In this document: piece after piece, positions 2,627-59,162 of the stretch
How positions within the stretch are numbered: the stretch's first letter is position 1
How the letters are laid out: every line of letters starts with the position of its first letter
Virus record (IMG/VR): IMGVR_UViG_3300035670_000009
Location: 96,001-160,000 of that record
Length of the DNA: 64,000 nt
Direction: 5' to 3' (one strand)
Source of the DNA: a virus
Taxonomy: Duplodnaviria > Caudoviricetes
The notes under the pieces: generated by a model
Told to the model about the DNA's origin: nothing
The model's database searches: none
Seen by the model: only the letters and a program-made list of their open reading frames with translations
Made by a program: the position numbers and the translations under genes

Positions 2627-2676
2627 AACGCCACCTCCGTGCAGCAATTATTTTATCGCACGGAAGCGCGCGAACT

Positions 2677-11483: not shown

Positions 11484-11563
11484 GGCAACCTCCGTGGTAA
11501 AGCTCCACCCATAACAACACAGGTGGTGCACTTTATATGCCACGATTTTTGCCAAAATTTAGC

Positions 11564-12730: not shown

Positions 12731-13083
12731 GGAAACTTGACCTTTAGCAGCGGAATCGTCGACGTCTTGCGATAGTATAACGTAATTGCCTTGATTTTTG
12801 GGTCGTTACGTTTTTGGCGTAGATAGTCAATTAACGCCGCGAGCCCGGCAGGATTTTCGGTCCGCATTGTTTCCATCAAGGCAAGCGTGGCGTCAATACA
12901 GTCAAATACAAGGTGCGCACTGCCTCCGCACCGGCAAGTACTTTTGGCGGCGTTTTCCAGATATGCGGCTTTGCATTGCGCGACCTGTTCTTCGACGGGC
13001 GCAAACGCTGAGTTAGCGTTGAAAAACTCAGCGTCGAAAAGCATTTTCACAAAGTCGTCGCGCGTCATGATGACCACGCTCAT
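12727..13083 (-). CDS. Hypothetical protein (118 aa)
   Basis: ATGA overlaps at both ends (13080-13083 and 12727-12730). Confidence 0.75.
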   Translation of the reverse strand: MSVVIMTRDDFVKMLFDAEFFNANSAFAPVEEQVAQCKAAYLENAAKSTCRCGGSAHLVFDCIDATLALMETMRTENPAGLAALIDYLRQKRNDPKIKAITLYYRKTSTIPLLKVKFP

Positions 13084-29507: not shown

Positions 29508-31406
29508 TCACTCGGTGGCGGGGACCGTGATTACACCTGACAGTCGCAACAGGCCGACTTCGCCTGCATAGCTGTCCGCACTGCCTGTGCGACTGAGCGT
29601 CACCAGGATCGTATCGCCTTCGGCGATTACGAAGGCCTCGCTAGAAATCTCAATTGGTGTGTCAATCGCCAGCGAACTGGCGGGCACGTCGAAGGCAATC
29701 TCTGTTTCTTCCGCGACACCGGGGAGGGCTGGCATGCCCGACGTAATTGTTCCGGCCGGGCGGGGCAGGCGGCGATAGGACATTGAGAGCACAGGAAGAA
29801 CGGCTGTAGCGCGACCGAAAATCTGCGCGCGTACGCGCATCTCTAGGTTATTACCGAGGTTGGCGCTGGGGACGTTGAGGCGCACGCGCACCAGCGAATC
29901 CTGTCCTTGCGGAAAGCCCAGGTACGGGATGTCGAGATAAAGGCGCTCAACTGTATCGGAGAGCCGAATGATCTGCGGCGCAATTTCCCTTTCCACAAGC
30001 TGGTCGTCGTATGAAACTGTGACCAAGCCCTGGTAGAGTAAAGAGGTGTCGTTTGAAGGCAGGTCGAGCGCAGTTTTTTCAGCGGCCGTAAGCCCTCGAG
30101 TGCGCGTTCCAGCAAGCACGATCGGCCCGGCGCCTACGCGAAGACCCTCGGCAATCCAGCCTTTGCGAAACTTGAAGTCTGAGGTGATTTGCTTGTAAAC
30201 GCGGCTGCCCACAACCTCGGTCGGGTCGTCGACTAGCGCAAGATTAAGCCCCAGTTCCAAGTCGCCCGTAAGCGGCTGCTCGCGCGTGGCCAATGTGCCG
30301 TCGCAGTTCGCAATAGTAATTGGACTGTCGACGGCGGGCTTGAGGCTTGTAACCACAGACCGATCGTTGCCGAAAAGCATCCGCAAATAAACGACGATCA
30401 CCCGCATACGTTCTTCGCGGGGGCAGGCGGCGAGCGACGCAGATGACTCGACTGAAAGCGTGTCGAGATCGGCGGGCCACGGCACGTCGCCGTAGCAGTC
30501 GCTCATCCACCAGATGCCGTTAACGTCGCAGATGCACAGACCGTCGCTGCCCAGTGGAATTTCTGTGGCACCAACGTTGTTTACGCCTTTGTCCCAAAGC
30601 ATGGCCACAGCCTGCAGCGGCATCGGCGGCCATACAAGCGAAAGAGCCGCATGTTGCGAAAAGTTGTAGCCAAACTTCGCGCCGACAGGCGCACGTCCCT
30701 GAAAAACTTCGTGGTCGGCAGGCAGCCAGCCTTCTCGAGTGGCGTCGGCATTGTCGACCGTGTGAACTCCCGCAGTTGCGGCAACGTCGGGATCGTGATC
30801 TCCGGCCGGAAGCGCCACAAGCTCAAAGCGGTAGTGAATGTGGTCTTCAAGAAAGTCCCGCATCTGCGGCATCACGACGACCCAAGGATCGTCGGCGCAG
30901 TTATCTTTGACGCCCTGAACGTAGCAGACGCTGACCGTAACCGGCGGGCGTTGCTTAACGAGTTTTCCTGCCTCCGCCGACGACAAGTAATATCGACCTG
31001 CGGCCACAGGCGCCGATACGGCGTTGGTGATCTCGGGCAGCCGCACGACGCCGTGGAGTACGATGTCGGCGAGCGTCGCGTTTTTCTTTTTGTAGCACAG
31101 GCCCAGCACGTCACTCGACGGCAATGGAACGAGCGTCTGCGTCTCTTGGTCGGTGTCGACAGCTGCGAGCGCCAGCTCGTAGCGCTGCGTCGCGGCGTTC
31201 CAGAAAACGGGCTGGCCGGGCAGCACGTCTGGCGCGATCGTGGCGTCGACGTCGAAGATCGCCTGGCCCAGCGCCGCGGCGTCCAGGCGCTGCTTCAGGT
31301 ACTCAGTCCGGTCGACCAGTGCGCGGTCAGGACGGCTTACGACGCCTGCCTGCACCGGCTCACCGGGTGTGACGTGCTTGATATTGCTTAGCCAGTTATT
31401 GGACAT
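29508..31406 (-). CDS. Putative tail fibre/baseplate protein
   Basis: N-terminal PGEPVQAGVVSRPDRALVDRTEYLKQRL resembles the N/S-R-P...L..RT..LK motif of myovirus fibre N-termini; located next to wedge genes. Confidence 0.62.
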   Translation of the reverse strand: MSNNWLSNIKHVTPGEPVQAGVVSRPDRALVDRTEYLKQRLDAAALGQAIFDVDATIAPDVLPGQPVFWNAATQRYELALAAVDTDQETQTLVPLPSSDVLGLCYKKKNATLADIVLHGVVRLPEITNAVSAPVAAGRYYLSSAEAGKLVKQRPPVTVSVCYVQGVKDNCADDPWVVVMPQMRDFLEDHIHYRFELVALPAGDHDPDVAATAGVHTVDNADATREGWLPADHEVFQGRAPVGAKFGYNFSQHAALSLVWPPMPLQAVAMLWDKGVNNVGATEIPLGSDGLCICDVNGIWWMSDCYGDVPWPADLDTLSVESSASLAACPREERMRVIVVYLRMLFGNDRSVVTSLKPAVDSPITIANCDGTLATREQPLTGDLELGLNLALVDDPTEVVGSRVYKQITSDFKFRKGWIAEGLRVGAGPIVLAGTRTRGLTAAEKTALDLPSNDTSLLYQGLVTVSYDDQLVEREIAPQIIRLSDTVERLYLDIPYLGFPQGQDSLVRVRLNVPSANLGNNLEMRVRAQIFGRATAVLPVLSMSYRRLPRPAGTITSGMPALPGVAEETEIAFDVPASSLAIDTPIEISSEAFVIAEGDTILVTLSRTGSADSYAGEVGLLRLSGVITVPATE

Positions 31407-31449
31407 CCGTGTCCTCCCAGGAGTTCACACATCCGTGTGAATCCAGCTG

Positions 31450-33676: not shown

Positions 33677-35320
33677 CTAGTCGGCAAAGCCCGCGACTTC
33701 GACAGAAATGGCGATGTCTTCTAGACCGACAAGAAAGACCGTCGTACGACCAGTCACCAGTCGCCCCGGATCATTAGGAATCGTTAACAACGTACTGTCT
33801 CGCAGGTACTGAATCGCCCCGTCCGGACGGCGAATGCGGCCAAACATATCGATGGCGCTCACGGCCTGGCGGCCCGATAGATATCTATGCGCGACGCCGT
33901 TAATGACCGAACTGTGGAGCTGGCCAGAAAATCCGATTTTTTGAATTTCCTCAACCAGGGCGAGCTTGATTGCAGCAGTGTCAATCGTCGCAGTTGTGTT
34001 TTCTTTGCGGATCGTGAAATTGATCTTCGTGAAACAAGGGACGGCCGCTTTGACGAGCACATCTGCCGACCGGCTGCGCACGTCGCGACGGTTGAGAAAA
34101 TCCTGCACGTCGTCGATAAGCGGCAGGCTCGCAGTGGTCACTGTGTAGTACGCGCGACTTTGGTTTACTACTAAGCCAGTCGACACCGTGTCGGTGTCCT
34201 CAAACTGAATGACAGCGGTCTGGTAGCGCGTGTACGCGCTTTCGGCCGTGGTTGTGATATCAGGAACGTGGTCGAGCTGGCTGAGATCTGTGCCGCGAAT
34301 ATCGTTGACAATCTCGTACCCGGTTGCCGTTTTGTCGTTCGGCTTGGTGACGCGGCGGACCTCGTAGAACCCTGGCGCTGTGTCGCGCTCCAAGGTGACC
34401 TGCCAACGTGTGCCGATCGTTCCTTCGCCAATGTAAACGGCCGTCAGCAAATGCTCTTTTTCCTGCGCGGCATAATGGGTTTGGCAATAGATATCTATTC
34501 GCCCGCCGCCCGAGACCGGAAACAAACCGTGCTGGTCACGCTGCTGCTCCGGATCGCCGCAGCCCAAAACGGAAAAATGCGGAATATTGGCGAACGCCGC
34601 TTGATTGCGAATAGCAGCTGCGTAACTTGCCCGCCCGCCAATAGTTTTAGCCGCCAGTCCAGAAGGAAGGCGGGTCAAATAATCTGCATTGCTTTCAGGC
34701 GCGGCGCCGGAAACAAAATCTACCGCCGCAAACGCCTCGCGCATGTTGTTGGGCACAAAATCTGGGACAAGTGTTGCTCCGCGGCGGATGTTCCCGGCCA
34801 CGCCGATTTCTAGCGCCTGCATGAGAATATTTATGGAATAGGTGCCGTCTCCCACAGCAATCATTTCCAATTCATCGGCACTTCTCGCGGCTGTCCCCGG
34901 CGGCACGGCAATCACGGACGCCACGGGCCGAAACTCGACGCCATCTGCCGCAAACGTGATATTGTCCGAAATCGCTGTGCTGACAGGAAGATTGAACACG
35001 ATGGTGGCCTCGCCCTTGGAACGAGTGCCGTTATTGCGTACGAGGTTGAAGTTCGACAGCACCTGGTCAACCAGCTCGGGCTCAGCCAACACCGGGTTGG
35101 CATTGATCTGCAGCAGGCTGTTACTCTGCAACACGCGATCAATGTTCTCCCGTACGGCGGCGTTAAGTGCGGCGTTAAAGTAAAGTACGAGGTCGTGAAA
35201 AACGCCCCGAGTCAGCTCGACGTCAGGGTGCTTTTCTTGCATGTACTGCGTAAACAGCGCGAACATTCGGTCGACTGTCGCGCCGTCGAGCTCGTCAAGT
35301 TTGGCAATTTCCAGGGGCAT
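33677..35320 (-). CDS. Baseplate J-like wedge protein
   Basis: ALEIGVAGNI, FVSGAAPESNADYLTRL...GGRASY typical of the BaseplateJ/gp47 family; follows the gp25-like gene. Confidence 0.82.
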   Translation of the reverse strand: MPLEIAKLDELDGATVDRMFALFTQYMQEKHPDVELTRGVFHDLVLYFNAALNAAVRENIDRVLQSNSLLQINANPVLAEPELVDQVLSNFNLVRNNGTRSKGEATIVFNLPVSTAISDNITFAADGVEFRPVASVIAVPPGTAARSADELEMIAVGDGTYSINILMQALEIGVAGNIRRGATLVPDFVPNNMREAFAAVDFVSGAAPESNADYLTRLPSGLAAKTIGGRASYAAAIRNQAAFANIPHFSVLGCGDPEQQRDQHGLFPVSGGGRIDIYCQTHYAAQEKEHLLTAVYIGEGTIGTRWQVTLERDTAPGFYEVRRVTKPNDKTATGYEIVNDIRGTDLSQLDHVPDITTTAESAYTRYQTAVIQFEDTDTVSTGLVVNQSRAYYTVTTASLPLIDDVQDFLNRRDVRSRSADVLVKAAVPCFTKINFTIRKENTTATIDTAAIKLALVEEIQKIGFSGQLHSSVINGVAHRYLSGRQAVSAIDMFGRIRRPDGAIQYLRDSTLLTIPNDPGRLVTGRTTVFLVGLEDIAISVEVAGFAD

Positions 35321-35796
35321 TACGACACCTGTGGCAATGTTTCAATAGGAAAAACAATAGTTCTGCTTGTGCCTGCGCGACTTACAACCGTGACCCGCAG
35401 GTCGGCATATCCGGGTTGAAGAGTTGCGTTTGTCAAAATCGCCTGGTCAAAACGTTCATCGTCGGGCATTTCCTCATATTCCTCACGGCGAAGGTTACGA
35501 GTAATTTCAAGACTGGCGAGTACAAAATTAGACAACAGATCACTCTGCGTTCGCACACGGCCCTGCCGAACATCCGTCATAAAGTCACAACCCCGGTCGG
35601 GCCTGTATGGCATTGAACCACGTTCAGTCAAGAACTCTAGCGCCCACCGCTGCGCCAACTTTTGCGCACCTGTGCAAATTTTACCGCTACTGCTTTCGGC
35701 ATAAAGCGCCATGTCTTGCAGTCCGTCCGAGCGGTCTGCGACTGGTTGAAAAGCGAGGTAGTCGTATTTGCGGTTGACAAAATCTTTGAGGGACAT
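35320..35796 (-). CDS. gp25/gpW-like baseplate wedge protein
   Basis: KLAQRWALEFLTERGSMPYRPDRGCDF matches the gp25 T..G.....P..G pattern; TAATG coupling to J-like gene. Confidence 0.75.
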   Translation of the reverse strand: MSLKDFVNRKYDYLAFQPVADRSDGLQDMALYAESSSGKICTGAQKLAQRWALEFLTERGSMPYRPDRGCDFMTDVRQGRVRTQSDLLSNFVLASLEITRNLRREEYEEMPDDERFDQAILTNATLQPGYADLRVTVVSRAGTSRTIVFPIETLPQVS

Positions 35797-35799
35797 GAG

Positions 35800-36267
35800 T
35801 TACCCTCCGTGTGCGCTGCCGACGTTAATAGTATTTTCCACAGCTTGCTTAAAAAACGAAAACACGCCTCTGCCGCCTAATCCGTGGCCCTTTAGCCGCC
35901 CGTGCATTAAAGACGCGCAGCGCACAAGAGAGGCGTGCCGCATACGAAAAGCGCGCTCTTCACTGGCCATAAAATCGGCCTGCCACTTCATTGCGATCAG
36001 GTCGCCCGAGTTGCCGCCTTGCTGCCCAGGACCCGCCAAAATGGTTTCAGAGTAAAGCTGATTGATGTTGTTGCGATCCCACGGCGGGTTGTGCAAACTG
36101 GGCACATCGAGCAGGTCTCGGGTTTTAAGCTCCTCGGGTGTGTGCCACAGTCGGAGATCGCTCTGTGTTTTGAACTGCTCAGACATCTTCTGAGCTTTCT
36201 GTTCCAGATCGCTGATCCGCTTTGAGTACTTCGGATCGACCTGTCCGCGGCTGGTACCGTGTCCCAT
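35800..36267 (-). CDS. Hypothetical protein (155 aa)
   Basis: Tightly tiled between the sigma factor and gp25-like gene. Confidence 0.72.
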   Translation of the reverse strand: MGHGTSRGQVDPKYSKRISDLEQKAQKMSEQFKTQSDLRLWHTPEELKTRDLLDVPSLHNPPWDRNNINQLYSETILAGPGQQGGNSGDLIAMKWQADFMASEERAFRMRHASLVRCASLMHGRLKGHGLGGRGVFSFFKQAVENTINVGSAHGG

Positions 36268-36269
36268 TT

Positions 36270-37082
36270 TTAGAACCCTCCTTGGCTGTAACGCTTATCG
36301 AGCATGGCCTGAATCTTGGCGGCGCGCTGGCTCACGGCGCCTGGCGTGATGTTCAATCGCTTGGAGATCTCCTGAGTGCTGGCCGCGCGACGGCCGTTGC
36401 GCCCCAAAGTCATATCCATAATCAGCTTGTCGGTCGGGCCCAGATCTTCGTAGACGAAGTTCGCCCAGGCGTCTGCGCCGCGGTTGGCGCCGGGGACCGT
36501 GCTCGCTACGCCGCCGTCCTGGCTCTCGTCGTCGTTTTCAAGAATCGTTGCGCTCTCGGGAAGCGGCTGGTGAAACGCGCGGATCTTCTTGATTCGCCGG
36601 GCCGAGAGGTTTGTGTGGTCGGACAACTCGTCGTCAGTCGGGTCGCGCCCCAGGCGGTCGCGCAGCTCGTTCTCGCTTTCGGAAAGCCGTTGGAAGTCGA
36701 GGCCCACCTGCTCGGGCACCGAAATGATGTTCTGTTCTTGAGCTGACAGGCGGCGCAGGCTTTGAAGCTGGCTGAGCAGGTGCGTCCGGACGTTGCCTTT
36801 TTTGGGGTCGTAGCTTTCCATAGCCTTTAGTGCCATCAGCCGCGCCCGTGTCTTAATCGTCGGGCTCGGGTTGTTCGCTGCGTAGCTGGAAACGGCCGTA
36901 TCGATGACCGGCTGCACCGTTGAGAGCAGCCGCGTGTTTACTTCCGGCGTGCGCGTAGTCTGCCACTGCTGGTAAACCGAATCGAACTCGTCGCCGACGC
37001 CGGTCGGGTTCTTAGGCTTGGAAAACGGCGGGGCGATGTCGCCCAGAATTGACGGCATACCTTGAAGTTTGTCTTGGGGCAT
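36270..37082 (-). CDS. Phage sigma-70 family RNA polymerase sigma factor (FliA/WhiG-like regions 2-3-4)
   Basis: ALKAMESYDPKKGNVRTH (region 2), LGRDPTDDELS (region 3), STQEISKRLNITPGAVSQ (region 4 HTH). Confidence 0.85.
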   Translation of the reverse strand: MPQDKLQGMPSILGDIAPPFSKPKNPTGVGDEFDSVYQQWQTTRTPEVNTRLLSTVQPVIDTAVSSYAANNPSPTIKTRARLMALKAMESYDPKKGNVRTHLLSQLQSLRRLSAQEQNIISVPEQVGLDFQRLSESENELRDRLGRDPTDDELSDHTNLSARRIKKIRAFHQPLPESATILENDDESQDGGVASTVPGANRGADAWANFVYEDLGPTDKLIMDMTLGRNGRRAASTQEISKRLNITPGAVSQRAAKIQAMLDKRYSQGGF

Positions 37083-49130: not shown

Positions 49131-51965
49131 TCAGACGACCAAATGAAGCTCAATGTTATTGAGCGGGGCCGGAACAACCAGGTCGAGAACGATCTCGATC
49201 CGATCGCGCAGCAGCGGATGAATCCGCAAAATGCGGATCGTGCCGTCGATCAGCTGCGAGCCCAGCTCAATGGTATTACCGTTGGTTTTGAAGAAGTCGA
49301 TGATCTTCGTGACCTCGTAATCCAGCTGGCGCACCATCGACGGAGTCGCATTGGTCCGGCCGATGTACGGACGGAGCCGACGGAGGAACAGGTAGGAAAT
49401 CGAGTCCACGTTGCGGCGGATCATCTCTTCCCGACGATTCAGGTCGAGATTGTCCGTCGTCAACGCGTGCCGCGTGTGCGGCGTGCCGTCACGGTCCTCC
49501 GTCACGATCCACACTCCTGCCTCGGCCATCCGATTCAGCTGCGTTTCGTTGAAGTACTTGTAACTACGCGTGAAATCGTCGAAACCGGCAACCTCGACGT
49601 TCGTGAGTCCCTGCTGCGGGACCACGCCCGACGCAAGACCCGCGAGCGCCGCGGCGAGGTAATAACCCGCCATAAGCGTGCCTGCTTCGCCCACCTGGTC
49701 CGGCCACACTGCGGCGACGCGGCGGTTCGAAAACGCACCGGCCCGCGTTGCGATGTCATCAGCGATCTCGTTGCGGTTGAGATTGTGATGCACCTCGACC
49801 CGCTGCGCGATAGACACAGGAGCGTCGGCGCCCGAGTAAAGCAGCAGCGAATTTTCAGAAAGCACCGCGTCTACAACGAACTCCTGATACTGTTCCTCGC
49901 CGAAACCGTCCACCGTGTACAGGTAACGTACGAGGTCGCCCGGCTGCACTTCGTTCGTAACGAAGTAGCCGCTTCCCTCGGACACCTGCAGCAGCGTGTA
50001 CTGCGTATTGGTGGCGTTCGGATCGTCGCTCAAGGTCGCCAGCACCGGCTCGGGCATTGTGAGTCCGGCCACGCCGGTGATTGCCGCGCCTTCGCCAACC
50101 AGGAGCTTGCTGGTCACCGCCTGCAAGGCGAAGAAACCAGCCTTCCAGTTGTTGGCGTACTCGTTCGACTCACCGTTGATATGCGCGGCGTACAGGTTGT
50201 GAACGCGAACGTCAAACGTCATCGGGACGAGGTTATACATGTCGTCCCGGCCCTTGATGCGCTCAAGAACCTGAACCCAGCTATCAAGATCCGTCGGCTC
50301 AAGAACCGCTGTGTACTTCACCACGGTTCCGTTGCTGTTGGAAAGCGCCTTGTAGACGCCCCACTTCAGCGGGTTGTCCGGGTGAAGCTGACCCGCAATC
50401 TTGTCCAGCTCGGCCACGCTCTGCACGCTGTTGACCTCGTCGGTCAGATCGCTAAGCCACTCGCGGTACTCGACGTAAAGCGTACCGCCACGAACGTCGA
50501 GCGGCTGTTCAACGCCGTTATCGGTCCATTCGGGATGGTAGGCGACGATGCCCTCGTGCACACAGATCTGCGTTGCTTCCTGCGCGTAGTTCTTCAACGG
50601 CGCAAAACCGATGCGGTTCTCAGACACCTGAATGTTGTCTTTGATGAACAGCCGCAGCTCGATGTCAGAAGCCGACGCAATTTCAAGCGGAAGATCGTCG
50701 CGAAGGATCAGCCGCCGAACAGGTCCGGCCTGGCTCGATTCCGCATTGATGTACCACTTGTCGCCCTTACGCAGCCCAGGAACCGGATCACCGGCATCTG
50801 CACCGTGGAAAGTGATCGTCACACCGTGCGAACCGATAGCCACCGCCACGTTGTGATCAACGACTTCGGTCGGGCCCGAATAGTCGAGACCCTTCACAGT
50901 GCGAACGGTGATCTCGGGAAAACCGGTCGGGCTGCTCTCGTCGAACAGGCCGCCCTTGGTGCACTCGACGATGTAGACGTCGTTCTTGTCGCCGTCGTAG
51001 CCGTCGCCGCCCGAGGTCGCTTCGACCTTGGTGAACTCCTGCTCCACGACTACGCGCCACTTCTGGCCGGTCACTAGCGCGTCCGGCGCGACGTTATCGT
51101 CGTCCGCCGCCACTGAGCAAGCGCTCGACGGATCGTAATCGAATGTCACCGTAAGCCCGCGGGTACCGATCGCCGTCGGCGTGCCCCAGTCTTCGGGCGT
51201 AACCTCAGCCACGTCGTCGTTGCCACTCGCCGAGCGGACGCGCAGCCGAGCAGCCGCGCAACCAACGACTGAGCTCTTGATAACCTCGATTGTGTACTCT
51301 TCTTCGATGTCGCCATCGACGAGGCCGTCGTACTCAGAAGCGTCGACCGAGGCCACGATGCAGTTATCGGGCCCCGCGATCTTCGTGAGCGTAGCGCTCG
51401 TCGACCCAACGGCATCCTGATTGTCCTGATCAGCCGCGGCCTCTTCGATCTGCGACGCGACCAGCTCGCTGGCGAAACCGGTGACAGTTGTCCACAGTTC
51501 CTTTTCCTCGCAGCTCTCGCTGTCGACTGCGCGAAGATAAACCACGTCGCCGCGCTGAACATCGCGATCGTTGAAGACCGAGCTGCGCGGATAGGCCACG
51601 CCATTGCTCTTGAACGCCAAGTCGCTCGACTGAATCCAGTTCGTGCGACCGCTGACCGCGGTGATCGTGGTCGACGTGTCGCCGAGCATGTGCTCGTAGA
51701 AGAGCAGCAACGCGTCGTCGATGTACAGCTTGGTGTACGACTCGTCGACGTTCGAACCCGGCAAACGACGCGGCCATGCGTAGCAGGCGTCGTTCAGATA
51801 GTCGTACGCGCCCAGACGGCAATCTCGTTTTTCGTCCGCGTCGTTGTAGCGATGGAGCATCGCGTGCGGGCCGGAGATATGAGCGCGCAGCGGCTCCGTG
51901 ATCTCCGTCGGGATGATCTGGAATTCCTGGAAAACGAGAACTTGTGGTTTAACGTAGCTCGACAT
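49131..51965 (-). CDS. Tail sheath protein (944 aa)
   Basis: C-terminal LNRMAEAGVWIV...RHALTT...REEMIRRNVDSI...YIGRTN...IVLDLVVPAPLNNIELHLVV is the conserved sheath C-domain; strong codon bias. Confidence 0.9.
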   Translation of the reverse strand: MSSYVKPQVLVFQEFQIIPTEITEPLRAHISGPHAMLHRYNDADEKRDCRLGAYDYLNDACYAWPRRLPGSNVDESYTKLYIDDALLLFYEHMLGDTSTTITAVSGRTNWIQSSDLAFKSNGVAYPRSSVFNDRDVQRGDVVYLRAVDSESCEEKELWTTVTGFASELVASQIEEAAADQDNQDAVGSTSATLTKIAGPDNCIVASVDASEYDGLVDGDIEEEYTIEVIKSSVVGCAAARLRVRSASGNDDVAEVTPEDWGTPTAIGTRGLTVTFDYDPSSACSVAADDDNVAPDALVTGQKWRVVVEQEFTKVEATSGGDGYDGDKNDVYIVECTKGGLFDESSPTGFPEITVRTVKGLDYSGPTEVVDHNVAVAIGSHGVTITFHGADAGDPVPGLRKGDKWYINAESSQAGPVRRLILRDDLPLEIASASDIELRLFIKDNIQVSENRIGFAPLKNYAQEATQICVHEGIVAYHPEWTDNGVEQPLDVRGGTLYVEYREWLSDLTDEVNSVQSVAELDKIAGQLHPDNPLKWGVYKALSNSNGTVVKYTAVLEPTDLDSWVQVLERIKGRDDMYNLVPMTFDVRVHNLYAAHINGESNEYANNWKAGFFALQAVTSKLLVGEGAAITGVAGLTMPEPVLATLSDDPNATNTQYTLLQVSEGSGYFVTNEVQPGDLVRYLYTVDGFGEEQYQEFVVDAVLSENSLLLYSGADAPVSIAQRVEVHHNLNRNEIADDIATRAGAFSNRRVAAVWPDQVGEAGTLMAGYYLAAALAGLASGVVPQQGLTNVEVAGFDDFTRSYKYFNETQLNRMAEAGVWIVTEDRDGTPHTRHALTTDNLDLNRREEMIRRNVDSISYLFLRRLRPYIGRTNATPSMVRQLDYEVTKIIDFFKTNGNTIELGSQLIDGTIRILRIHPLLRDRIEIVLDLVVPAPLNNIELHLVV

Positions 51966-51969
51966 GCGT

Positions 51970-51985
51970 CAGGCCTCCATGCCTA
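51970..51985 (-). promoter_or_regulatory. RBS hairpin of sheath gene, UAGGC-AUGGAG-GCCUG; candidate CsrA site
   Basis: Four Watson-Crick pairs plus a U-G pair closing an AUGGAG hexaloop that carries the SD. Confidence 0.65.
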
Positions 51986-52013
51986 AATGTCGTGATGGAC
52001 GTGGCTGCGAGTT

Positions 52014-52019
52014 AGTATA
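52014..52019 (-). promoter_or_regulatory. Candidate -10 element (TATACT) for the sheath-tube operon
   Basis: Intergenic, about 50 nt upstream of the sheath start; no convincing -35. Confidence 0.35.
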
Positions 52020-52071
52020 GCGCACCCCAGCGCAACAAAAAAATCCGTTTCACGACGATGTGAAAAGTCCC

Positions 52072-52785
52072 TTAATACGACAACAGGTCGGTCGCCTTAA
52101 AGACAATCCGCTTGAGGCGCGGCGCATACGGCTGGAGCGTCCAGGCTTCCTCGGCCATGTATGCCACTGTTACAGGTACGGCGTAGCCCTGCAACGCTTC
52201 TTGAACTTCGCCAACCCCGCCAACTTCGCTGACAAAAAACTGGTGAAGGTTCATTTGTTCGCGAATCCAGGGTCCGAAGTTGTGCAAAAATTTAACGGTC
52301 TCCGTTGCGAGAAACTCTGTTTCAGCGCCCGCGGGAGCCAGGCAAAACAGCGTGTGGCTGCCTTCCCAAAAACCCACGTATGAAGTCGCCCCCTCGTATA
52401 CGTTTGTGAACAACTTGTCGCCAATTCCCTGCCGCATCCAGCGCCAACCATTTCTTTTTATCAAAATAGCCGGGCGCTTGTCGGCCGTTGCTGGCTGCCA
52501 GCGTGTGATACTTTCTATCAAAATACCGCCCGCGTTTAAACCGTTGTCGCTCGGCCGCCACATGCCGATTTCTGCAAGCTGCCGCCGGACGCGCGGTTCT
52601 TCAATATTGTTCGGATCGGAGAAATGGGCCAGCAAAAGCTGCCGCAACAGCCCCGTCATAACATGCGGCCGCATGCCATACGAGCAAAGCGAAGAAACCT
52701 TATCGACGCGGTTTTCCGGCTGGCTTCCCGCGGGAAACTGCTCTTCGACCTCCGGCGGATTCGGCGAGTTGTTGCAGTCGCTCAA
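52072..52785 (-). CDS. Putative tail terminator/neck protein (237 aa)
   Basis: TTG start with AAAGGA; position between neck genes and sheath; PAILIKR motif. Confidence 0.55.
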   Translation of the reverse strand: MSDCNNSPNPPEVEEQFPAGSQPENRVDKVSSLCSYGMRPHVMTGLLRQLLLAHFSDPNNIEEPRVRRQLAEIGMWRPSDNGLNAGGILIESITRWQPATADKRPAILIKRNGWRWMRQGIGDKLFTNVYEGATSYVGFWEGSHTLFCLAPAGAETEFLATETVKFLHNFGPWIREQMNLHQFFVSEVGGVGEVQEALQGYAVPVTVAYMAEEAWTLQPYAPRLKRIVFKATDLLSY

Positions 52786-52929
52786 GAAAACCGTCCTTTG
52801 CTGCGTTTTCGCCCGTCATGCGGATTATTGCCAGCATACGCTTTGGCGGGTCGTACAGCCTAATTTTTGGCAGCCCTACCGAAATCTTTTTTGCGTTACT
52901 CATACAATACCTAATTACACAAGAGCACG

Positions 52930-54240
52930 CTAGAAGCGCCAGAAATCGTCCTCTTCTTCCGGCGACGGCGCGGGTAGTCGTTCTTCAGTCTCGGTAATAA
53001 CAGATTCGCTGACCTCGGTTGCCAAGTCGGCTGGCAGGGCGTCGCTTGTTTCAACACCCAGCGCCGCAACAGTCCACACGAATGAGCTTTCAGCGTCTGC
53101 TGGCACGGCGGCAATGTAATCGTAATCAGGCCCCCATTCGCCCGGTTTTTCGTAAAGCACGGCGTAATCACCCGGCTCGACCCGCAGAGATTCTGTCCAG
53201 CGACCGTTTACGCGTGTCGTGGTTCCAGCGACGGCCAAATTGCGGCTAGGCAGCGCCGGGTAAGCGGCGTCAAAAACATCTTTCGGAAAAATGTAAACGT
53301 TTGCGCCCACCACGCTGTAGCCGGTCGCATCCCGGTAGGCCAGGTTGTCGACACCGCCGTAATTGTGATCGACCAGCACGGAACCGCAGCCCAAAATCGG
53401 CAAGGTCGGGCCAGGCCGTTCAGCTGGTTCGCCGCCTATTTCTATCGCATAAATAGCGTTGGTCAGCGGCACGAGGCCCATTTCGACGTCGTAAATCAAC
53501 GGTACGCCCCGGATGGCGGCGGCTACCTTGATGGAGTGAATGATCCAGCGCTCATCGCTTGCGCCATTCACCCAGATGTCATTGGTGTTCAGGGTCGGAA
53601 AACCGATGACGCGCGCGCGGGTCATGTGGTCTTTGCGGGTCGTGCCCAGGGCGTTGGTGTCCTGGTCCTCGGTGATCGTGTACGGCGCCACGTCCCAGCA
53701 CTGCAGCGGCAGGGCCGGGTGGTAGCCCACTTCAAAACCTGTGCCCGAGCAGACCGGGCAGTTGGAGTCTAAAACTTCGCCGGTGAGCTGGTCGCGGCAG
53801 CGGGTGCAGGGCCGTCCAAATCGGAAGGGCTTGATCAGGAAGCCGGAAACAGAGACGTACTTGTGACGAAGCTGCTCCTTGCGGATGATTTCGCGGGCAA
53901 TGTTCCAATCTCGCTCGGCCAGCTCGCCGAAACAAGAAACAGGCTGGCTGACATAGATATCTTTCGGCGTAGTTAGCGTCACGCGGTAATGCGTTACCAG
54001 GTCGCTACCGGCAGCGCGCCAGACGTCGTCGTAGGCGACGTACCCGTCTGTGACCGGGCCGCCGACGTTGCGCCAGTCCGCCGCGTCGTTTAACGGGGTG
54101 TTGCCATACTGGAGCTGAAAGACGTACGGACCGGGGTCGTTAAAGGTCCGCTCTAGCTGCCACCAGACCCGGGTGACGCCGCGGACCATGTGATCCACGG
54201 CCACCTGGCGGAACGGAAATAAGCGTTTAAAACTGGACAT
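52930..54240 (-). CDS. Putative head-closure/neck protein with Zn-ribbon insertion and C-terminal beta-sandwich
   Basis: CTRC...CPVCSGTGFEVGY motif; neck-region position. Confidence 0.58.
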   Translation of the reverse strand: MSSFKRLFPFRQVAVDHMVRGVTRVWWQLERTFNDPGPYVFQLQYGNTPLNDAADWRNVGGPVTDGYVAYDDVWRAAGSDLVTHYRVTLTTPKDIYVSQPVSCFGELAERDWNIAREIIRKEQLRHKYVSVSGFLIKPFRFGRPCTRCRDQLTGEVLDSNCPVCSGTGFEVGYHPALPLQCWDVAPYTITEDQDTNALGTTRKDHMTRARVIGFPTLNTNDIWVNGASDERWIIHSIKVAAAIRGVPLIYDVEMGLVPLTNAIYAIEIGGEPAERPGPTLPILGCGSVLVDHNYGGVDNLAYRDATGYSVVGANVYIFPKDVFDAAYPALPSRNLAVAGTTTRVNGRWTESLRVEPGDYAVLYEKPGEWGPDYDYIAAVPADAESSFVWTVAALGVETSDALPADLATEVSESVITETEERLPAPSPEEEDDFWRF

Positions 54241-54247
54241 AGACGTT

Positions 54248-54253
54248 ATTGTA
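54248..54253 (-). promoter_or_regulatory. Candidate -10 element (TACAAT) 8 nt upstream of the 54240 ATG (possibly leaderless or short-leader mRNA)
   Basis: Located just downstream of a terminator; no SD between it and the start codon. Confidence 0.35.
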
Positions 54254-54275
54254 GCTGGCCGCGCTGATAGCTAAG

Positions 54276-54309
54276 AAAAACGCTGCGCCCGCCCCGAAGG
54301 GCGGCGCGC
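54276..54309 (-). terminator. Rho-independent terminator with UUCG loop
   Basis: Minus strand GCG-CCGCCC-UUCG-GGGCGG-G-CGC followed by UUUUUCUU. Confidence 0.75.
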
Positions 54310-54330
54310 GAACGCTTTTCTGAATCACGA

Positions 54331-54615
54331 TCACTCGTCTTTCGTCTCGGCCAGCCGTTGTCGGACTATTCCGGGCCAGTCGATACTTTGAACGCAGTCC
54401 TTGAACACGTTTTTCAGGAACGTCGGCGCAACCAGCAAGAACGGGGCGTTCAAGCTCATGAACGCCGCGCGGATCGCGACGCCAATTTTCTCAGCGTCGC
54501 CTGCGTCGCCGTGGTTTTCCGTTACCTCGCGGAGCGTTGGGCCCTCTTCTTGGTCCATCTCGCGAATCCAATTAAGAATTATGGTGCTCAGCTCATTCAG
54601 CTCTGCGGTGCTCAT
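54331..54615 (-). CDS. Hypothetical protein (94 aa), tandem paralog of 54615..54899
   Basis: TAATG coupling; aligns with neighbour. Confidence 0.75.
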   Translation of the reverse strand: MSTAELNELSTIILNWIREMDQEEGPTLREVTENHGDAGDAEKIGVAIRAAFMSLNAPFLLVAPTFLKNVFKDCVQSIDWPGIVRQRLAETKDE

Positions 54616-54899
54616 TAGTTCAGCTCCGGACGAACGAGAAGGTTGTCGATGACATAAGTCCAGTCGACTTTAGCCATAAAGTTGTTGAGCAGCGCCACCG
54701 TCGGGGGCGGGGCCAATGCGACAAACGGGACGTAGGCGACACGAATTGCGTTGGCCAGCGCCTCTCCTATGCTCGCCACGTCGTCTTCTTTGGCGCGCGC
54801 CACTGCCTTTTCCACAAGTGCGCCGCCCGTTCGCTTGTCGAGCTCACGCAAGCTCCGCAACGCGAGCAGCGTTTCTTTGTTAGCCACTGCCAGTGGCAT
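54615..54899 (-). CDS. Hypothetical protein (94 aa), tandem paralog of 54331..54615
   Basis: GAGGAGG RBS. Confidence 0.75.
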   Translation of the reverse strand: MPLAVANKETLLALRSLRELDKRTGGALVEKAVARAKEDDVASIGEALANAIRVAYVPFVALAPPPTVALLNNFMAKVDWTYVIDNLLVRPELN

Positions 54900-55086
54900 G
54901 ACGTAGCCTCCTCAGCGGGCTACTGGGTAGCGCCCAGCGCGCAGCGGCTTTCCGATACAGCCGCCAATAGATATCTATTCCGCGCGTTTCACACGGTAGC
55001 GTGATACTACCGCGCCGAAACACCGCAGGGAATGCGCTCCGGTGCAAAACCCTGGGCAATTAATATGCCCGCGTTTCCGGACTTTT

Positions 55087-56100
55087 TTAGTAGCGCATCC
55101 GGGCGCCGCTGGTGTAAGCCGAATACTTGTAAGTGCTAGTAACTTCGCCGTAGCAACTCTCGAGATTAATCGCGGCCTTTGTGACCCGGACCCAATCTCG
55201 ATAGGCCTGCCAGCGGGCCTGTCCGGCCTGGTCATACGCCTGGGACTTGTTTTGATCGTTGATCTGAAGCCCGGCGGCGGCGTACTGGAAATCGTTGCGG
55301 CGGAACTGCTCGGCGACCATGAAAAACAAGTTGGCGCAGATCCCCTCGAGCCAGTGGTATCGAAATGGGAAACTTTGGGTCGTGTACGTATCAATCGGCG
55401 GTGGCGTCTCGTTCCAGTACATAACTGGGCGCGAGACGGCCAGCGCGATTTCGGCGTCGTCAAACATCAGATTATCGAGCAGGTAGCTTTCGCCGGGCGA
55501 GCTGTCGCGAAGATGAAGCCGAATCTCAGAAATTGACGGCGGGCCGCCTTCCTGTCCTTGGGGGCCGAAGGTGCCGCGGTTGATGACCACCGAGAAGGTG
55601 TTTGAGAAAACAACGCAAGGCTGCCCGGCTGCTTCGGCCTGGACGCTCACCAGGGCCATCTCGCCGTAATAGACGCCAGGCAGGTCGGTCATGCCTTTAG
55701 TCAGCTCAGCTCGCACGCGCCCTTCTGACGCGTCGACAACGGCTGCCTCGACCTCCAGCGGCGGCCGTTGGTTGCCCAGGCTAAGTTGCTCCTTGAGGCG
55801 CAGGACGACTCTGAAATCGGCGTCTGCGACGCTCTGAGAACCGTCTGTAAGGCCACAAGGCTCCAGGTTTACCGGATGGCCGTGCTGGTCGTGCAGCTGC
55901 CAGTCGAGAAATCCGCACTGCCCTTGCGTAAAGTTTACGGCGCGCATCCGGCCGTAGACCGGCGCGCCATTTACCGTAGAAACCGGCGCGCTGATGACGT
56001 TCTGTGTGGCGCAAGGTACTGGATTTAACTGGCCGTTAGACAGTTGTGGTTCTGGATACGGAACTTGTGGATACGGATTGGGCGTGGCGACGACAACCAT
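55087..56100 (-). CDS. Putative head-tail adaptor/neck protein with N-terminal Ig-like domain
   Basis: ATG 56100 with GGAG (ORF track 56184); C-terminal LRDSSP...LLDNLMFDDAEI...WNETPP...RRNDFQY...INDQNK resembles adaptor proteins of large phages. Confidence 0.62.
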   Translation of the reverse strand: MVVVATPNPYPQVPYPEPQLSNGQLNPVPCATQNVISAPVSTVNGAPVYGRMRAVNFTQGQCGFLDWQLHDQHGHPVNLEPCGLTDGSQSVADADFRVVLRLKEQLSLGNQRPPLEVEAAVVDASEGRVRAELTKGMTDLPGVYYGEMALVSVQAEAAGQPCVVFSNTFSVVINRGTFGPQGQEGGPPSISEIRLHLRDSSPGESYLLDNLMFDDAEIALAVSRPVMYWNETPPPIDTYTTQSFPFRYHWLEGICANLFFMVAEQFRRNDFQYAAAGLQINDQNKSQAYDQAGQARWQAYRDWVRVTKAAINLESCYGEVTSTYKYSAYTSGARMRY

Positions 56101-56104
56101 TGGT

Positions 56105-56209
56105 TTACTCCATAAAACAGTGGATAACCCACAAACCGGGCGCGCCCAGCGCGACCTCGGGCCATAGGACAAACGCAGTCGCAAGGAGCATTACAAAAAA
56201 ACGACGCAT
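56105..56209 (-). CDS. Possible 34-aa hydrophobic peptide (MRRFFVMLLATAFVLWPEVALGAPGLWVIHCFME)
   Basis: ATG with GAGG upstream; basic N-terminus plus hydrophobic core; its stop lies in the next gene's RBS. Confidence 0.35.
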   Translation of the reverse strand: MRRFFVMLLATAFVLWPEVALGAPGLWVIHCFME

Positions 56210-56228
56210 CGTGCGGTCCTCATAGCGA

Positions 56229-56260
56229 AGAAGGCTGGCCGCATGCGCAGCCAGCCTTCT
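56229..56260 (-). terminator. Stem-loop at the end of the head operon
   Basis: AGAAGGCTGGC / GCCAGCCTTCT 11-bp inverted repeat; weak U tract. Confidence 0.6.
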
Positions 56261-56288
56261 CTTACGCGTGACGATCGGTTTGCGCGAC

Positions 56289-56654
56289 TCAGTCGTCGTT
56301 GTCGACCCAGTCGCTCGTGCCGGTACCGGTCGGATCCCACTGGGGGTCGACCGTGCCGAGCACAAGGCCGTCGAGTGCAAGCTCGCGAGTCACCTCAGCC
56401 TCAGCGCTGTAGAGATACGTAGCTGGCGAGCTGACGATCTTCAGATCGCCCGCCTGCAGCGCGGTCTCGAGCGCCTTGAACTTCCGCTGGCTCCTCTGTC
56501 CGCCCAGCTTGCTGACGAGGTCGCCCGGAACCGTATAGGTCTCGTTCGCCTCGAGTCGCTTGCCGTGCGTACCGAGGAAGCCGAACACCTTGGCGGCGCC
56601 AGAAGTGTTCTCAACCGTCGTATACAGGCCAGTAGTCACAGGGGTGTAGGGCAT
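56289..56654 (-). CDS. Hypothetical head-associated protein (121 aa)
   Basis: In head operon, strong codon bias. Confidence 0.78.
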   Translation of the reverse strand: MPYTPVTTGLYTTVENTSGAAKVFGFLGTHGKRLEANETYTVPGDLVSKLGGQRSQRKFKALETALQAGDLKIVSSPATYLYSAEAEVTRELALDGLVLGTVDPQWDPTGTGTSDWVDNDD

Positions 56655-56672
56655 GATTCACTCTCTTTCTGT

Positions 56673-57071
56673 TCACTCGGCGTTCTGCATCGCCGCGGCG
56701 GCAGCAGCCTGCAGCGTGAGAATCGCGTTGGCGATCTCAGGCTGGCCGACCACCACATCCGCAGCCCCGTTAAACGCCGCCGACTTCTCGGTCGCCGCAG
56801 CGTCCGCACCGCCCATGCCAGCAGCAGCAAGCATGGCATCCAGCTCCTGGTTCACAGCGACCAGGCCCGAAGCGCTCGCCGCGGCGGCCTTCTCCTGCTC
56901 AGCCGTGTAGAGCACATGAAGCTTCTGCGCAGCCGACCACATGTCGGCGGCTTCCTGCTCAGACCGCGGCGCGATGCCGTGAGCAGACAGCTTCTCAAAG
57001 AAATACGGCGCAGCAAGCTCCGACACAATCGTGTTGTAGGCCTGCTCGGCCGCGACTTTTACATCATCCAT
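56673..57071 (-). CDS. Ala-rich hypothetical head-associated protein (132 aa)
   Basis: AAGGAG RBS; KVAA, KAAA and KSAA motifs. Confidence 0.78.
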   Translation of the reverse strand: MDDVKVAAEQAYNTIVSELAAPYFFEKLSAHGIAPRSEQEAADMWSAAQKLHVLYTAEQEKAAAASASGLVAVNQELDAMLAAAGMGGADAAATEKSAAFNGAADVVVGQPEIANAILTLQAAAAAAMQNAE

Positions 57072-57098
57072 GAGTAGTGCTCTCCTTGTTTTGATCCG

Positions 57099-57130
57099 GG
57101 GCAGCGGGCGTTTTTAAGCGCCCGCTGCCC
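57099..57130 (-). other. 12-bp GC-rich stem-loop downstream of the capsid gene, without a U tract on the minus strand
   Basis: GGGCAGCGGGCG / CGCCCGCTGCCC; probably a 3' mRNA-stabilising or attenuating structure. Confidence 0.6.
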
Positions 57131-57151
57131 GAAGATCGCTATATCACGGCA

Positions 57152-58078
57152 TCACTTGAAATCGACGCGAGCGAGACCGTTCGTGTGACCGAACGAGCCG
57201 CCCTGCGTGTTGTAGGCGAAGTACTCGAGCATGTACGCCTCACGACGGATGTACATCGTGGTGGGCTCCAGCTCGTAATTCTTGCCAATGAACTTGGGCG
57301 ACGCGAACATGAACATCGAGTCGTCCGGCACAAGGTCGCGCTTGATCGTGACGATCCAGCGGCAGTTGAGGAAGTTGGTCTCCGCCCAACCGTTCTTGAT
57401 GATGTCCTGCGAGAAATCACCGCCCATCTCGTCGCGGCCGAACTTCAGCAGCTCTTTGATGGTGATGTTGTTCACCAGGCAGGTCTCGACCTCGAAGTGC
57501 GAGGGCGTCCGCGGCATAACCTTCAGCGCGTCGACAATCGTCTCACGCGTGATGCCGCCGTGGATTTCCTCGTACTGCACGACACCGGACGCAACGTTCG
57601 CCACGCCCGGGGTCGGGAGGACGGCGTTGAACGCGGCGATGAACTTGGAATCCTCTTCCGCCAGCATGTCCTTGATCATGTTGTCGGAAAGGACCTGACG
57701 GATGTCGATCACGTAGGTACGCAGCTCGTCGACGTCCTTCACAGCGCGGGGCGACACGATCCGGTCAAACATGACGCGGTATCGCGGGCCACGGATGTAG
57801 AAGTTGATCGGGAGCGTCGCGAACGGGAGCGACACAGCCGCCGGGGAGTCGGGTTCCTTGTCGACCACCTTGACGGGCTTGTCAGTGTCAACCTGACGGT
57901 CAAGCTCGTCGTTGGTGATGGTCAGCGGCGGCATAATCCGCCGGTAGAACCCGTCTTCACGCATCTTGGTGCGCGTGAAGTCGTTAACAGCGTCAACGGC
58001 CTGCTTCTGCATGCCGGGGGTGTCAAGCTGCTCGAAGAGCGTCTCGTTGAGCAGCTGGATTTCTTGCGGAGTGGGCAT
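57152..58078 (-). CDS. Major capsid protein (probable HK97 fold, 308 aa)
   Basis: After protease/scaffold/decoration genes; very strong codon bias (C/G-ending codons); C-terminal GGSFGHTNGLARVDF is typical of capsid C-termini; strong RBS and downstream hairpin. Confidence 0.78.
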   Translation of the reverse strand: MPTPQEIQLLNETLFEQLDTPGMQKQAVDAVNDFTRTKMREDGFYRRIMPPLTITNDELDRQVDTDKPVKVVDKEPDSPAAVSLPFATLPINFYIRGPRYRVMFDRIVSPRAVKDVDELRTYVIDIRQVLSDNMIKDMLAEEDSKFIAAFNAVLPTPGVANVASGVVQYEEIHGGITRETIVDALKVMPRTPSHFEVETCLVNNITIKELLKFGRDEMGGDFSQDIIKNGWAETNFLNCRWIVTIKRDLVPDDSMFMFASPKFIGKNYELEPTTMYIRREAYMLEYFAYNTQGGSFGHTNGLARVDFK

Positions 58079-58082
58079 TTAA

Positions 58083-58098
58083 GGAACCTCCATGTTCC
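58083..58098 (-). promoter_or_regulatory. RBS hairpin of capsid gene, GGAAC-AUGGAG-GUUCC; candidate CsrA site
   Basis: Perfect 5-bp stem, AC-AUGGAG-GU core. Confidence 0.7.
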
Positions 58099-58118
58099 GG
58101 GTGTAACTAGGGATGGAC

Positions 58119-58667
58119 TCAGGCGGCCTCGCCCGGGAGCCACACGGTCCAGAAGGACAGTGCGAAGACCCCGTTGTGGTTTTTGGCCTTACCGGACGAC
58201 ACGACACCGACCACCGGCGTCACAAACTGCTCGACCGACTCGTTGGTGATCCGACCACCGGTCGTGGCGTCGGAATTCGAAGCCACCGCGGTGAGAAGAT
58301 CGCCGGGAGTGTAAGTGCGAGACGAGTCGAACTCCGTCGACGCGATCTCATAACCACCCGTCGCCACAAGGCCGGACATCTTGCCGGTCGGGGCGATGGC
58401 CCGGTGCATGAAATTGCCAGACGCCGTGGTGCCGGGGTTACTGACGTCCGCTTCGGCCGAGCCGTTGAGCAGAAAGACCGCAACGCCGGTGTTGTGCGCA
58501 CCCGGCCGGAAATTGCCGTCCGTATCAACGTGAACCACGCGACCGCGCGGGACGTCGAAAGAAACGACCGAAGCGAGCTTGGCGTCGTAGTCAAGGGCGG
58601 CCATCTGGAACCAGCCCTTTTTGACGTCGAGCCCCTTCTCAGTGATCAGATTGGGAGCAGTTGCCAT
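58119..58667 (-). CDS. Putative capsid decoration/cement protein (182 aa)
   Basis: Immediately upstream of the capsid gene; beta-rich, YTPGDLLTAV...GRIT...VVGVV pattern typical of decoration proteins. Confidence 0.62.
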   Translation of the reverse strand: MATAPNLITEKGLDVKKGWFQMAALDYDAKLASVVSFDVPRGRVVHVDTDGNFRPGAHNTGVAVFLLNGSAEADVSNPGTTASGNFMHRAIAPTGKMSGLVATGGYEIASTEFDSSRTYTPGDLLTAVASNSDATTGGRITNESVEQFVTPVVGVVSSGKAKNHNGVFALSFWTVWLPGEAA

Positions 58668-58670
58668 GTT

Positions 58671-58686
58671 AAGACCTCCATGTCTT
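58671..58686 (-). promoter_or_regulatory. RBS hairpin of decoration gene, AAGAC-AUGGAG-GUCUU; candidate CsrA site
   Basis: Perfect 5-bp stem, AC-AUGGAG-GU core. Confidence 0.7.
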
Positions 58687-58715
58687 TTTGGTGAAAATCA
58701 CAGATCCATGTGAAA

Positions 58716-59141
58716 TCAGGCAGTGGGCGGGTTCAGACCAAGACCCTGGAACAACTTGATGTCCGAGGCCTTGAGCTTGCCGTCACGAGCGCCCACATAC
58801 CCGCTCGTCAGGCTGTTCGACGGGTCGTAACCGGCGGTTTTGGTAGCCACCGGCGTGCCCAGGCGTGCCATCTCGGCAGCGTTTTTGTGCGCTGCGAGCT
58901 TGATCACGAGTTCCATGGCGCGCACCGGATTAGCGAGAGCCGCTGCAAGGGCCTCTTTCTGGTGCGGCTCGACCCGTTCGTTTTCGAGACAGGCCTTCAC
59001 AGCTTCAGGGATCAGGCGCGCCAGCTTCTCGTTCTGCTCTTCGCGCTCCTTGATCACCGCGGCGGCCTTGGTCATCGCCGCATCGGAAAAACCGATGTAG
59101 TCGACGATGTTTTGGACCAGCGGGTTATTGCAGTTGGACAT
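58716..59141 (-). CDS. Hypothetical head-associated helical protein (141 aa)
   Basis: CACGGAGG RBS; head operon. Confidence 0.78.
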   Translation of the reverse strand: MSNCNNPLVQNIVDYIGFSDAAMTKAAAVIKEREEQNEKLARLIPEAVKACLENERVEPHQKEALAAALANPVRAMELVIKLAAHKNAAEMARLGTPVATKTAGYDPSNSLTSGYVGARDGKLKASDIKLFQGLGLNPPTA

Positions 59142-59162
59142 GGTTTCAAACCTCCGTGTGAT

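Follow-up and report, generated by a model that had tools for sequence, protein, structure and literature searches.

An uncultured jumbo phage, represented by IMG/VR record IMGVR_UViG_3300035670_000009 (203,910 bp, 57.7% guanine plus cytosine (GC), direct terminal repeats), encodes a small protein of the CsrA family, and its genes for the capsid and for two further predicted virion proteins (decoration and tail sheath), together with roughly a dozen others, begin at RNA hairpins that resemble CsrA-binding sites. We analysed a 64,000-nt window of this genome (bases 96001–160000, nearly all genes on the minus strand) together with the complete record, designated G000, and with relatives that carry other G numbers. 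Judged by position and by covariation among relatives, the hairpins are real, conserved RNA structures, and comparison of genomes supports the view that their presence tracks csrA across the phage clade. In our estimation they are probably translational operators of the CsrA type that serve the phage's own mRNAs, an interpretation that we favour with some reserve. Because the hairpins look exactly like CsrA sites, the phage probably controls its own protein synthesis with a borrowed regulator.

Hairpins and csrA in the phage genome

An initial annotation of the window had described hairpins with an identical AUGGAG loop over the Shine–Dalgarno (SD) sequences of the presumed capsid, decoration and sheath genes, and a similar core before a 141-aa gene. 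All four sites were recovered on the minus strand where they had been placed (Table 1); the sheath stem proved to be 6 bp long instead of 5 and, at the 141-aa gene, the core was found without an extended stem. The capsid hairpin stands 4 nt upstream of the AUG of the 308-aa gene, with its core ACAUGGAGGU at 58086–58095. The 48-nt leader of the decoration gene also contains a second GGA-loop hairpin, absent from the initial annotation, 28 nt upstream of the SD hairpin. At the 632-aa gene the hairpin falls on the start codon itself, its AUG consisting of loop positions 5–6 followed by the initial base of the 3' arm; the SD (GGAGG) is separate and lies upstream, and a second site occurs 26 nt upstream of the first.

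Table 1. Positions of csrA and of the GGA-loop sites within the window (loops in square brackets; MFE, minimum free energy; RBS, ribosome-binding site).
Feature	Position	Strand	Basis
csrA, 69 aa	8894–9103	-	Pfam CsrA, E=2.3e-22
Capsid gene (57152–58078), SD hairpin GGAAC[AUGGAG]GUUCC	58083–58098	-	MFE fold recovers hairpin
182-aa gene (58119–58667, putative decoration protein), SD hairpin AAGAC[AUGGAG]GUCUU	58671–58686	-	sequence and fold
Decoration leader, second GGA-loop hairpin UCACA[UGGAUC]UGUGA (ACAUGGAU)	58698–58713	-	MFE structure
Sheath gene (49131–51965), SD hairpin UUAGGC[AUGGAG]GCCUGA, 6 bp	51969–51986	-	sequence and fold
141-aa gene (58716–59141), core ACACGGAGGU, 2-bp stem only	59150–59159	-	sequence
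632-aa gene (29508–31406), start-codon hairpin GGAC[ACGGAU]GUCC	31401–31414	-	sequence, fold, relatives
632-aa leader, second ACACGGAUGU site, CAC[ACGGAU]GUG	31428–31439	-	leader fold z = -2.6
146-aa gene (2186–2626, weak GNAT match), SD hairpin UGCUGC[ACGGAG]GUGGCG	2629–2646	-	sequence and fold
155-aa gene (35800–36267), SD hairpin AGCC[AAGGAG]GGUU	36274–36287	-	sequence
158-aa gene (35320–35796), RBS core CACGGAGG, closing pair only	35804–35811	-	sequence
124-aa gene (11109–11483), RBS core CACGGAGG, closing pair only	11489–11496	-	sequence

Complementarity around these loops exceeds chance. Genes were called genome-wide with a simple codon-usage caller, on which the start-site counts are based, and the six bases on each side of NNGGAN hexaloops at RBSs were compared with controls in which the 3' arms were permuted among genes. 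Across the whole genome, 16 start sites had stems of at least 4 bp where 3.4 were expected, and 10 had stems of at least 5 bp where the expectation was 1.2; counts this high did not arise in any of 3000 permutations. In a separate count of hairpins with at least 4 bp, 14 lie at the SD position and two on the AUG. An enrichment over randomised controls, for which the initial annotation had proposed to look, is present in the full genome. It is confined to the register that places GGA at loop positions 3–5 and vanishes when the loop is slid by 1–4 nt. Since a flexible hairpin search (loops of 5–8 nt) pointed in the same direction with much more noise, the hexaloop is the specific form. The minus strand of the window carries only 10 ATGGAG; three ATGGAGG stand before a gene start, each with a stem of 5–6 bp. 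In the window, ACANGGANGU / ACANGGANGT is present in six copies against 1.06 expected, a count reached in none of 100 shuffles.

The bases flanking the SD are also distinctive. Two SD classes were seen, the ordinary AAGGAG and C-A-Y-GGAGG(U); 12 of the 16 genome-wide copies of CAYGGAGG lie at start sites, and the dinucleotide CA precedes GGANG at 40% of start sites versus 8% elsewhere in G000 (p=1e-10), in line with the earlier assertion that a CAY before GGAGG goes beyond anti-SD pairing. RsmE sites have the consensus A/U-CANGGANG-U/A. Systematic evolution of ligands by exponential enrichment (SELEX) gave the CsrA consensus RUACARGGAUGU, in which ACA and GGA are invariant and GGA lies within a hairpin loop (PMC4347634), and A(N)GGA is the primary CsrA site type (PMC4066749). 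The phage sites read ACA-Y-GGA-G-GU, and their core, C-A-N-GGA-N-G, fits the SELEX and RsmE consensus: GGA is found in a hairpin loop, ACA lies 5' of GGA, with a C–G closing pair, and the site overlaps the SD or AUG. An Rfam scan of the window at gathering thresholds returned no family.

The csrA gene, already noted in the initial annotation, is genuine. Its product scores 79.2 bits against PF02599 (curated cut-off 27), a result with which a whole-genome scan agrees, and residues 1–47 align with RsmE/CsrA chains 2jpp (the RsmE–hcnA complex), 1y00 and 1vpz. The protein keeps the N-terminal MLVLSRK, the ...VPVVRAEL segment and an arginine aligned with RsmE R44; by alignment it is a CsrA family member that retains the residues matching the RNA-binding strands of RsmE.

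The identities assumed for the three virion genes are supported to differing degrees. By homology the 308-aa gene encodes the major capsid protein: its product has a tblastn match in Salmonella phage Arash, to the protein annotated there as major capsid protein. It is only ~28% identical to the proteins of that phage and of Vibrio D69-type phages. The 944-aa protein has weak but consistent matches to Phage_sheath_1 (Pfam) and to a PHROG tail-sheath family. For the 182-aa protein, an AlphaFold model with a predicted local distance difference test score of 87.8 has its best PDB matches in proteins that decorate or cement capsids (E 0.01–0.1), which makes a capsid decoration role plausible. PHROGs and Pfam gave almost no annotation for the hairpin genes or the neighbours of csrA, a nucleotide search of GenBank phages gave no matches, and the 64-kb window contains no tRNA. 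Near csrA lies the gene of a 635-aa protein (13080–14987, minus strand) with a glycosyltransferase family 9 (heptosyltransferase) domain.

Other elements with related sequences were recorded as well. A dispersed palindrome, AGATATCT, which also recurs in the window, lies a few bases upstream of two start-site hairpins outside it (G000 11825–11860 and 26575–26600), in the contexts ...atagatatctattggcaaTGGC[AAGGAC]GCCA and ...ggatagatatcTTTCC[ACGGAG]GGGGA. Three long intergenic A(N)GGA-loop hairpins, likewise outside the window, were found at G000 ~181640–181680 (14-bp stem, AUGGAA loop), ~191180–191205 (7-bp stem, ACGGAU loop, 30 nt before a gene without an SD) and ~84000–84030 (9-bp stem, ACGGAA loop); these may be leader operators or terminators.

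Conservation in relatives and association with csrA

Searches of IMG/VR with the capsid protein returned 75 relatives at 99–56% protein identity, and eleven relatives spanning 43–69% GC were fetched in full. From this GC range we infer that the clade has many different hosts. Among bacterial genome assemblies, capsid homologues (64–69% identity) were found only on four contigs of metagenome-assembled genomes (L225–L228) from unrelated phyla, labelled Nanopelagicales, Nannocystaceae and Gemmataceae; most likely these are phage contigs mis-binned with bacteria, unusable as evidence of a host.

Capsid leaders retain C[A(Y/A)GGAG]G down to ~64% protein identity, while their stems differ: GGAAC/GUUCC, AGAAC/GUUCU, AAGAC/GUCUU, GGAC/GUCC, GCAC/GUGC, GGCAC/GUGCU, CGAUC/GAUCG, GAUC/GAUC, AAAC/GUUU and UAAC/GUUA. 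The stem covariation that the initial annotation proposed to look for is evident in 43 distinct GGA-anchored 20-mers from capsid leaders, in which 78% of cells are paired (61% after shuffling). These leaders reach a covariation score of 0.376 versus 0.13 when shuffled; none of 500 shuffles equalled it, and every slid register fell far below; the closing pair is C–G in 38 of the 43, and the loop A is kept in at least 90%.

Orthologues of the sheath, decoration, 141-aa and 791-aa genes in the eleven relatives likewise keep hairpins on different stems. Decoration orthologues use UUAGAC/GUCUAA, AAAC/GUUU, UGAAC/GUUCA and UUGUC/GACAA; sheath orthologues use CAGC/GCUG, UGGC/GCCA, GUGC/GCAC and CUCGC/GCGAG, and none of them has a hairpin in the csrA-negative genomes of the orthologue comparison. 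The 141-aa orthologues have 4-bp stems in G010 (GAUC/GAUU) and G012 (GAUC/GAUC). In csrA-positive genomes, 632-aa orthologues retain C[A(A/C)GGAU]G at the AUG, with 5' arms that covary with codon 2 (GCC/GGC, UGCC/GGCA, GGUC/GGCC, GCUC/GAGU and GCUC/GAGC); this start-codon hairpin is missing in G014 and in the csrA-negative G022–G024. The second site of the 632-aa leader is retained in the closest relatives, L231 and L232.

Of 33 related records, 23 have a csrA gene, as do 16 of the 19 with a completeness of at least 90%; every copy in the clade-wide alignment starts with MLVL(S/T)RK. Hairpins of the ANGGAN type with stems of at least 4 bp were then counted in 5' untranslated regions (5'UTRs; SD, AUG and leader positions) and in gene interiors. 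With csrA present, the 5'UTR:interior counts were 19:14 in G000, 12:14 in G010, 16:10 in G011, 53:19 in G012, 25:26 in G013, 29:22 in G015, 8:15 in G019 and 1:23 in G014; with csrA absent they were 1:17 in G022, 3:11 in G023 and 2:21 in G024. Far from being equally common without the gene, an outcome that would have told against the initial annotation, the hairpins pool to 163:143 in csrA-positive genomes versus 6:49 in the three csrA-negative ones (p=1e-9, not corrected for phylogeny). The CA-GGANG signature at start sites is enriched 4–8-fold in csrA-positive relatives and significant in seven of eight csrA-positive genomes; in none of the three csrA-negative genomes is it enriched (odds ratio at most 1). 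Hidden Markov model, tblastn and motif searches found no csrA in these three, and a weak CsrA-like tblastn match in G023 was rejected as not CsrA.

A second, independent contrast comes from two sister genomes. G016, the sister of G015, has no csrA at the syntenic site or elsewhere in its 183 kb (~84% of the expected genome), and most of the hairpins have been lost from it: of 122 orthologous pairs, 17 have a hairpin in G015 alone, four in G016 alone and three in both (p=0.007). G012 has by far the most hairpins of any genome compared (31 at the SD position, six at the AUG and 16 in leaders), and its leaders often carry two.

The csrA genes of the relatives vary in form and setting. In G012 (IMGVR_UViG_3300020202_000001) csrA is a tandem CsrA–CsrA fusion in one open reading frame (ORF; 11292–11729, minus strand; loci L086/L104). 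CsrA-like ORFs of G011 (L099) and G025 (L105) carry an insertion of ~20–30 aa between beta strands 1 and 2 and have poor Pfam scores; G011 shows strong hairpin enrichment although its CsrA variant scores poorly. In G012, G013 and G015 (L086, L078 and L077) csrA is encoded on the other strand from almost all genes and has an RBS of the form (C)GA[AAGGAG]UC(G), by its sequence a possible autoregulatory site. The csrA leader of G000 contains no hairpin of this type.

Function of the hairpins

Under the operator interpretation, the C–G-closed A-N-GGA-N hexaloop would present GGA either as the SD core or directly on the start codon, and a CsrA dimer, most likely phage-encoded and possibly the host's too, would clamp the loop. 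The 30S subunit would thereby be kept off the start site, so that translation of ~15–25 phage genes, including those for capsid, decoration and sheath, the three bulk virion proteins, would be lowered or delayed. Both binding by CsrA and its repressive effect are inferred here from structure, motif and the co-distribution with csrA, and these same features partly support the initial proposal that CsrA holds back structural mRNAs. The proposed targets are not limited to late or structural genes: the set also holds genes for a methyltransferase-like and an HD-domain protein and several small genes located at 11–36 kb of the genome, with AAGGAG or AAGGAC loops, and the idea of a late-gene timer is therefore too narrow. 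Neither it nor the suggested carbon-state sensor found support. No CsrB/RsmY/RsmZ-like sponge RNA was found in the genome among intergenic regions of at least 120 nt or by sliding A(N)GGA density, and FliW (PF02623) was not found in the phage. The densest plus-strand spot (window ~20140–20560) is a tandem repeat with a period of 15/30/45 bp, six ATGGAG and long ORFs in several frames on both strands; rather than a sponge, it is probably antisense to a repetitive (Ser-rich?) coding region of the minus strand. The tiny in-frame upstream ORFs that the loop AUGs had been said to open do exist at the capsid and sheath genes, but a role for them was rejected: relatives carry either AUG or ACG in the loop, and ACGGAG is as common.

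Several observations weigh against operator function. Hairpin stability equals that of shuffled sequence (z near 0), and because the free energies are unremarkable the evidence rests on covariation and position. Classical strong CsrA targets usually have at least two sites; a second upstream A(N)GGA accompanies only two of 14 hairpin genes in G000, which is the background rate, and paired sites were accordingly rejected as the general pattern of G000. The G012 genome speaks for operators instead, with such a second site in 18 of 32 hairpin genes (56%) versus 37 of 210 others (p=9e-6). In a tree of capsid plus sheath the three csrA-negative genomes form one clade, so their contrast with the csrA-positive genomes may reflect a single evolutionary event. 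Repressing the proteins needed in the largest amount is, moreover, not an obvious strategy, and the searches for a sponge RNA or a FliW-like antagonist turned up no means by which repression would be released. The link with csrA has exceptions in both directions, as G014 has a genuine csrA yet no enrichment of hairpins or CA, and G016, in which csrA was not detected, retains some hairpins, including that of the sheath gene.

These exceptions would be less awkward if the structure acted alone, with a short stem displaying the SD GGAG in its loop and shielding it from long-range pairing in GC-rich mRNAs, for efficient initiation on highly expressed genes. The strongest examples do lie on bulk virion proteins, enrichment is strongest at 57–69% GC and lacking in the low-GC G014, G019 and G022, and two unrelated csrA-positive phages show nothing similar. 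Such a display would nevertheless leave the conserved C-A before NGGA unexplained, as it does not pair with the anti-SD, and likewise the locking of the last SD bases (G, GU) in the stem, the GGA hairpin on an AUG whose SD lies elsewhere and the upstream ACAYGGAU leader hairpins; the GC-rich csrA-negative genomes G024 (66% GC) and G023 (57% GC) also have little or no enrichment. We consider this explanation unlikely, though it is the strongest competitor. Less probable still is recognition by another factor, either a T4 RegB-like endoribonuclease of phage or host that cuts GGAG or a phage RNA-binding protein, with CsrA acting on host mRNAs only. Published proposals for phage CsrA all concern host manipulation, for instance lowering CRISPR-Cas expression (PMC8450108, PMC11879866), and most proteins of the clade are without annotation, which leaves room for another binder; yet the motif agrees with the CsrA consensus position by position, hairpin content follows csrA even within the G015/G016 sister pair, and no RegB-like or other candidate was identified. 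That the hairpins are a duplicated intergenic cassette, or ordinary SDs with accidental flanking complementarity, can practically be dismissed: short stems and the share of the SD in setting the loop speak for it, but the permutation and register controls oppose accident, stems and flanks differ among the three sites, and covariation across 43 relatives is significant.

CsrA-type operators remain the reading that we prefer for this clade. Pseudomonas phage F116 and Vibrio phage 219E41.1, which are unrelated and csrA-positive, have no CsrA-type hairpins at their own start sites; carrying csrA does not alone predict a self-regulon, and extension to any csrA-positive phage was rejected on this ground. 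On a wider proposition our judgement is evenly balanced: the clade, a widespread group of environmental jumbo phages (at least 75 contigs), would have taken over CsrA as its own translational regulator with a co-evolving C[ANGGAN]G regulon, its operators decaying after csrA loss. This would be the first viral CsrA regulon, maybe an assembly-coupled or titration-based control over the making of virion proteins in a flagellin-like manner.

Relation to known CsrA systems and phage operators

Binding of CsrA to a GGA hairpin at the SD and the presence of csrA genes on phages are both already known. The gene is carried by F116-like Pseudomonas phages, Vibrio crassostreae phages, E. coli phage PTXU04, by plasmids and by integrative and conjugative elements; phage csrA has been catalogued since 2020, and its role in the phage life cycle was called untested as late as 2025 (PMC7366521, PMC8450108, PMC11879866). 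Knock-down of the PTXU04 csrA homologue led to smaller plaques (PMC11879866). What is new is the arrangement, a probable viral regulon on virion-gene mRNAs that is conserved and co-varies with csrA across a large jumbo-phage clade; our literature search found no account of CsrA sites on phage structural-gene leaders. The candidate cis-targets on the phage's own mRNAs, operators of 16–18 nt for a 69-aa protein, offer an alternative to host manipulation. If the interpretation is correct, a virus can capture both a global RNA-binding regulator of bacteria and the operator grammar that goes with it, operator content decays once the regulator is lost, and large phages can subject translation of their major virion proteins to dedicated post-transcriptional control.

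The closest parallels are the bacterial leaders bound by CsrA or RsmE (RsmE–hcnA, 2jpp; CsrA–glgC, cstA and pgaA), which share the C–G-closed A(N)GGA hexaloop overlapping the SD; the hcnA loop ACGGAU recurs literally in the phage 632-aa gene and in the 791-aa orthologues. Those systems likewise employ a small CsrA protein, dimeric there, with a conserved N-terminal strand, and two phage leaders have paired sites 26–28 nt apart. Unlike them, both the regulator and its proposed targets are viral here, these targets comprise genes for virion proteins and other phage genes, most carry a single hairpin, and no CsrB/RsmZ-type sponge accompanies them. The csrA genes of F116, Vibrio crassostreae phages, PTXU04 and others are also borne by mobile elements but, in contrast to what we propose for this phage, are thought to act on the host.

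Two further systems are instructive. In the CsrA–FliW–Hag system of Bacillus subtilis, a GGA hairpin at the SD lets CsrA repress translation of a polymerising bulk structural protein, flagellin; synthesis of capsid and sheath could, by analogy, be tied to their assembly, with the difference that the phage has no FliW homologue. Translational operators are also familiar from phages, as in the binding of MS2 and Qbeta coat protein to the replicase start hairpin and in the action of T4 RegA and gp32. Like these, the arrangement proposed here has a phage-encoded protein binding the start-site RNA of other phage genes and shutting off their translation; it would differ in that the protein is a recruited bacterial global regulator and that the operator is common to at least a dozen genes and follows the bacterial consensus.

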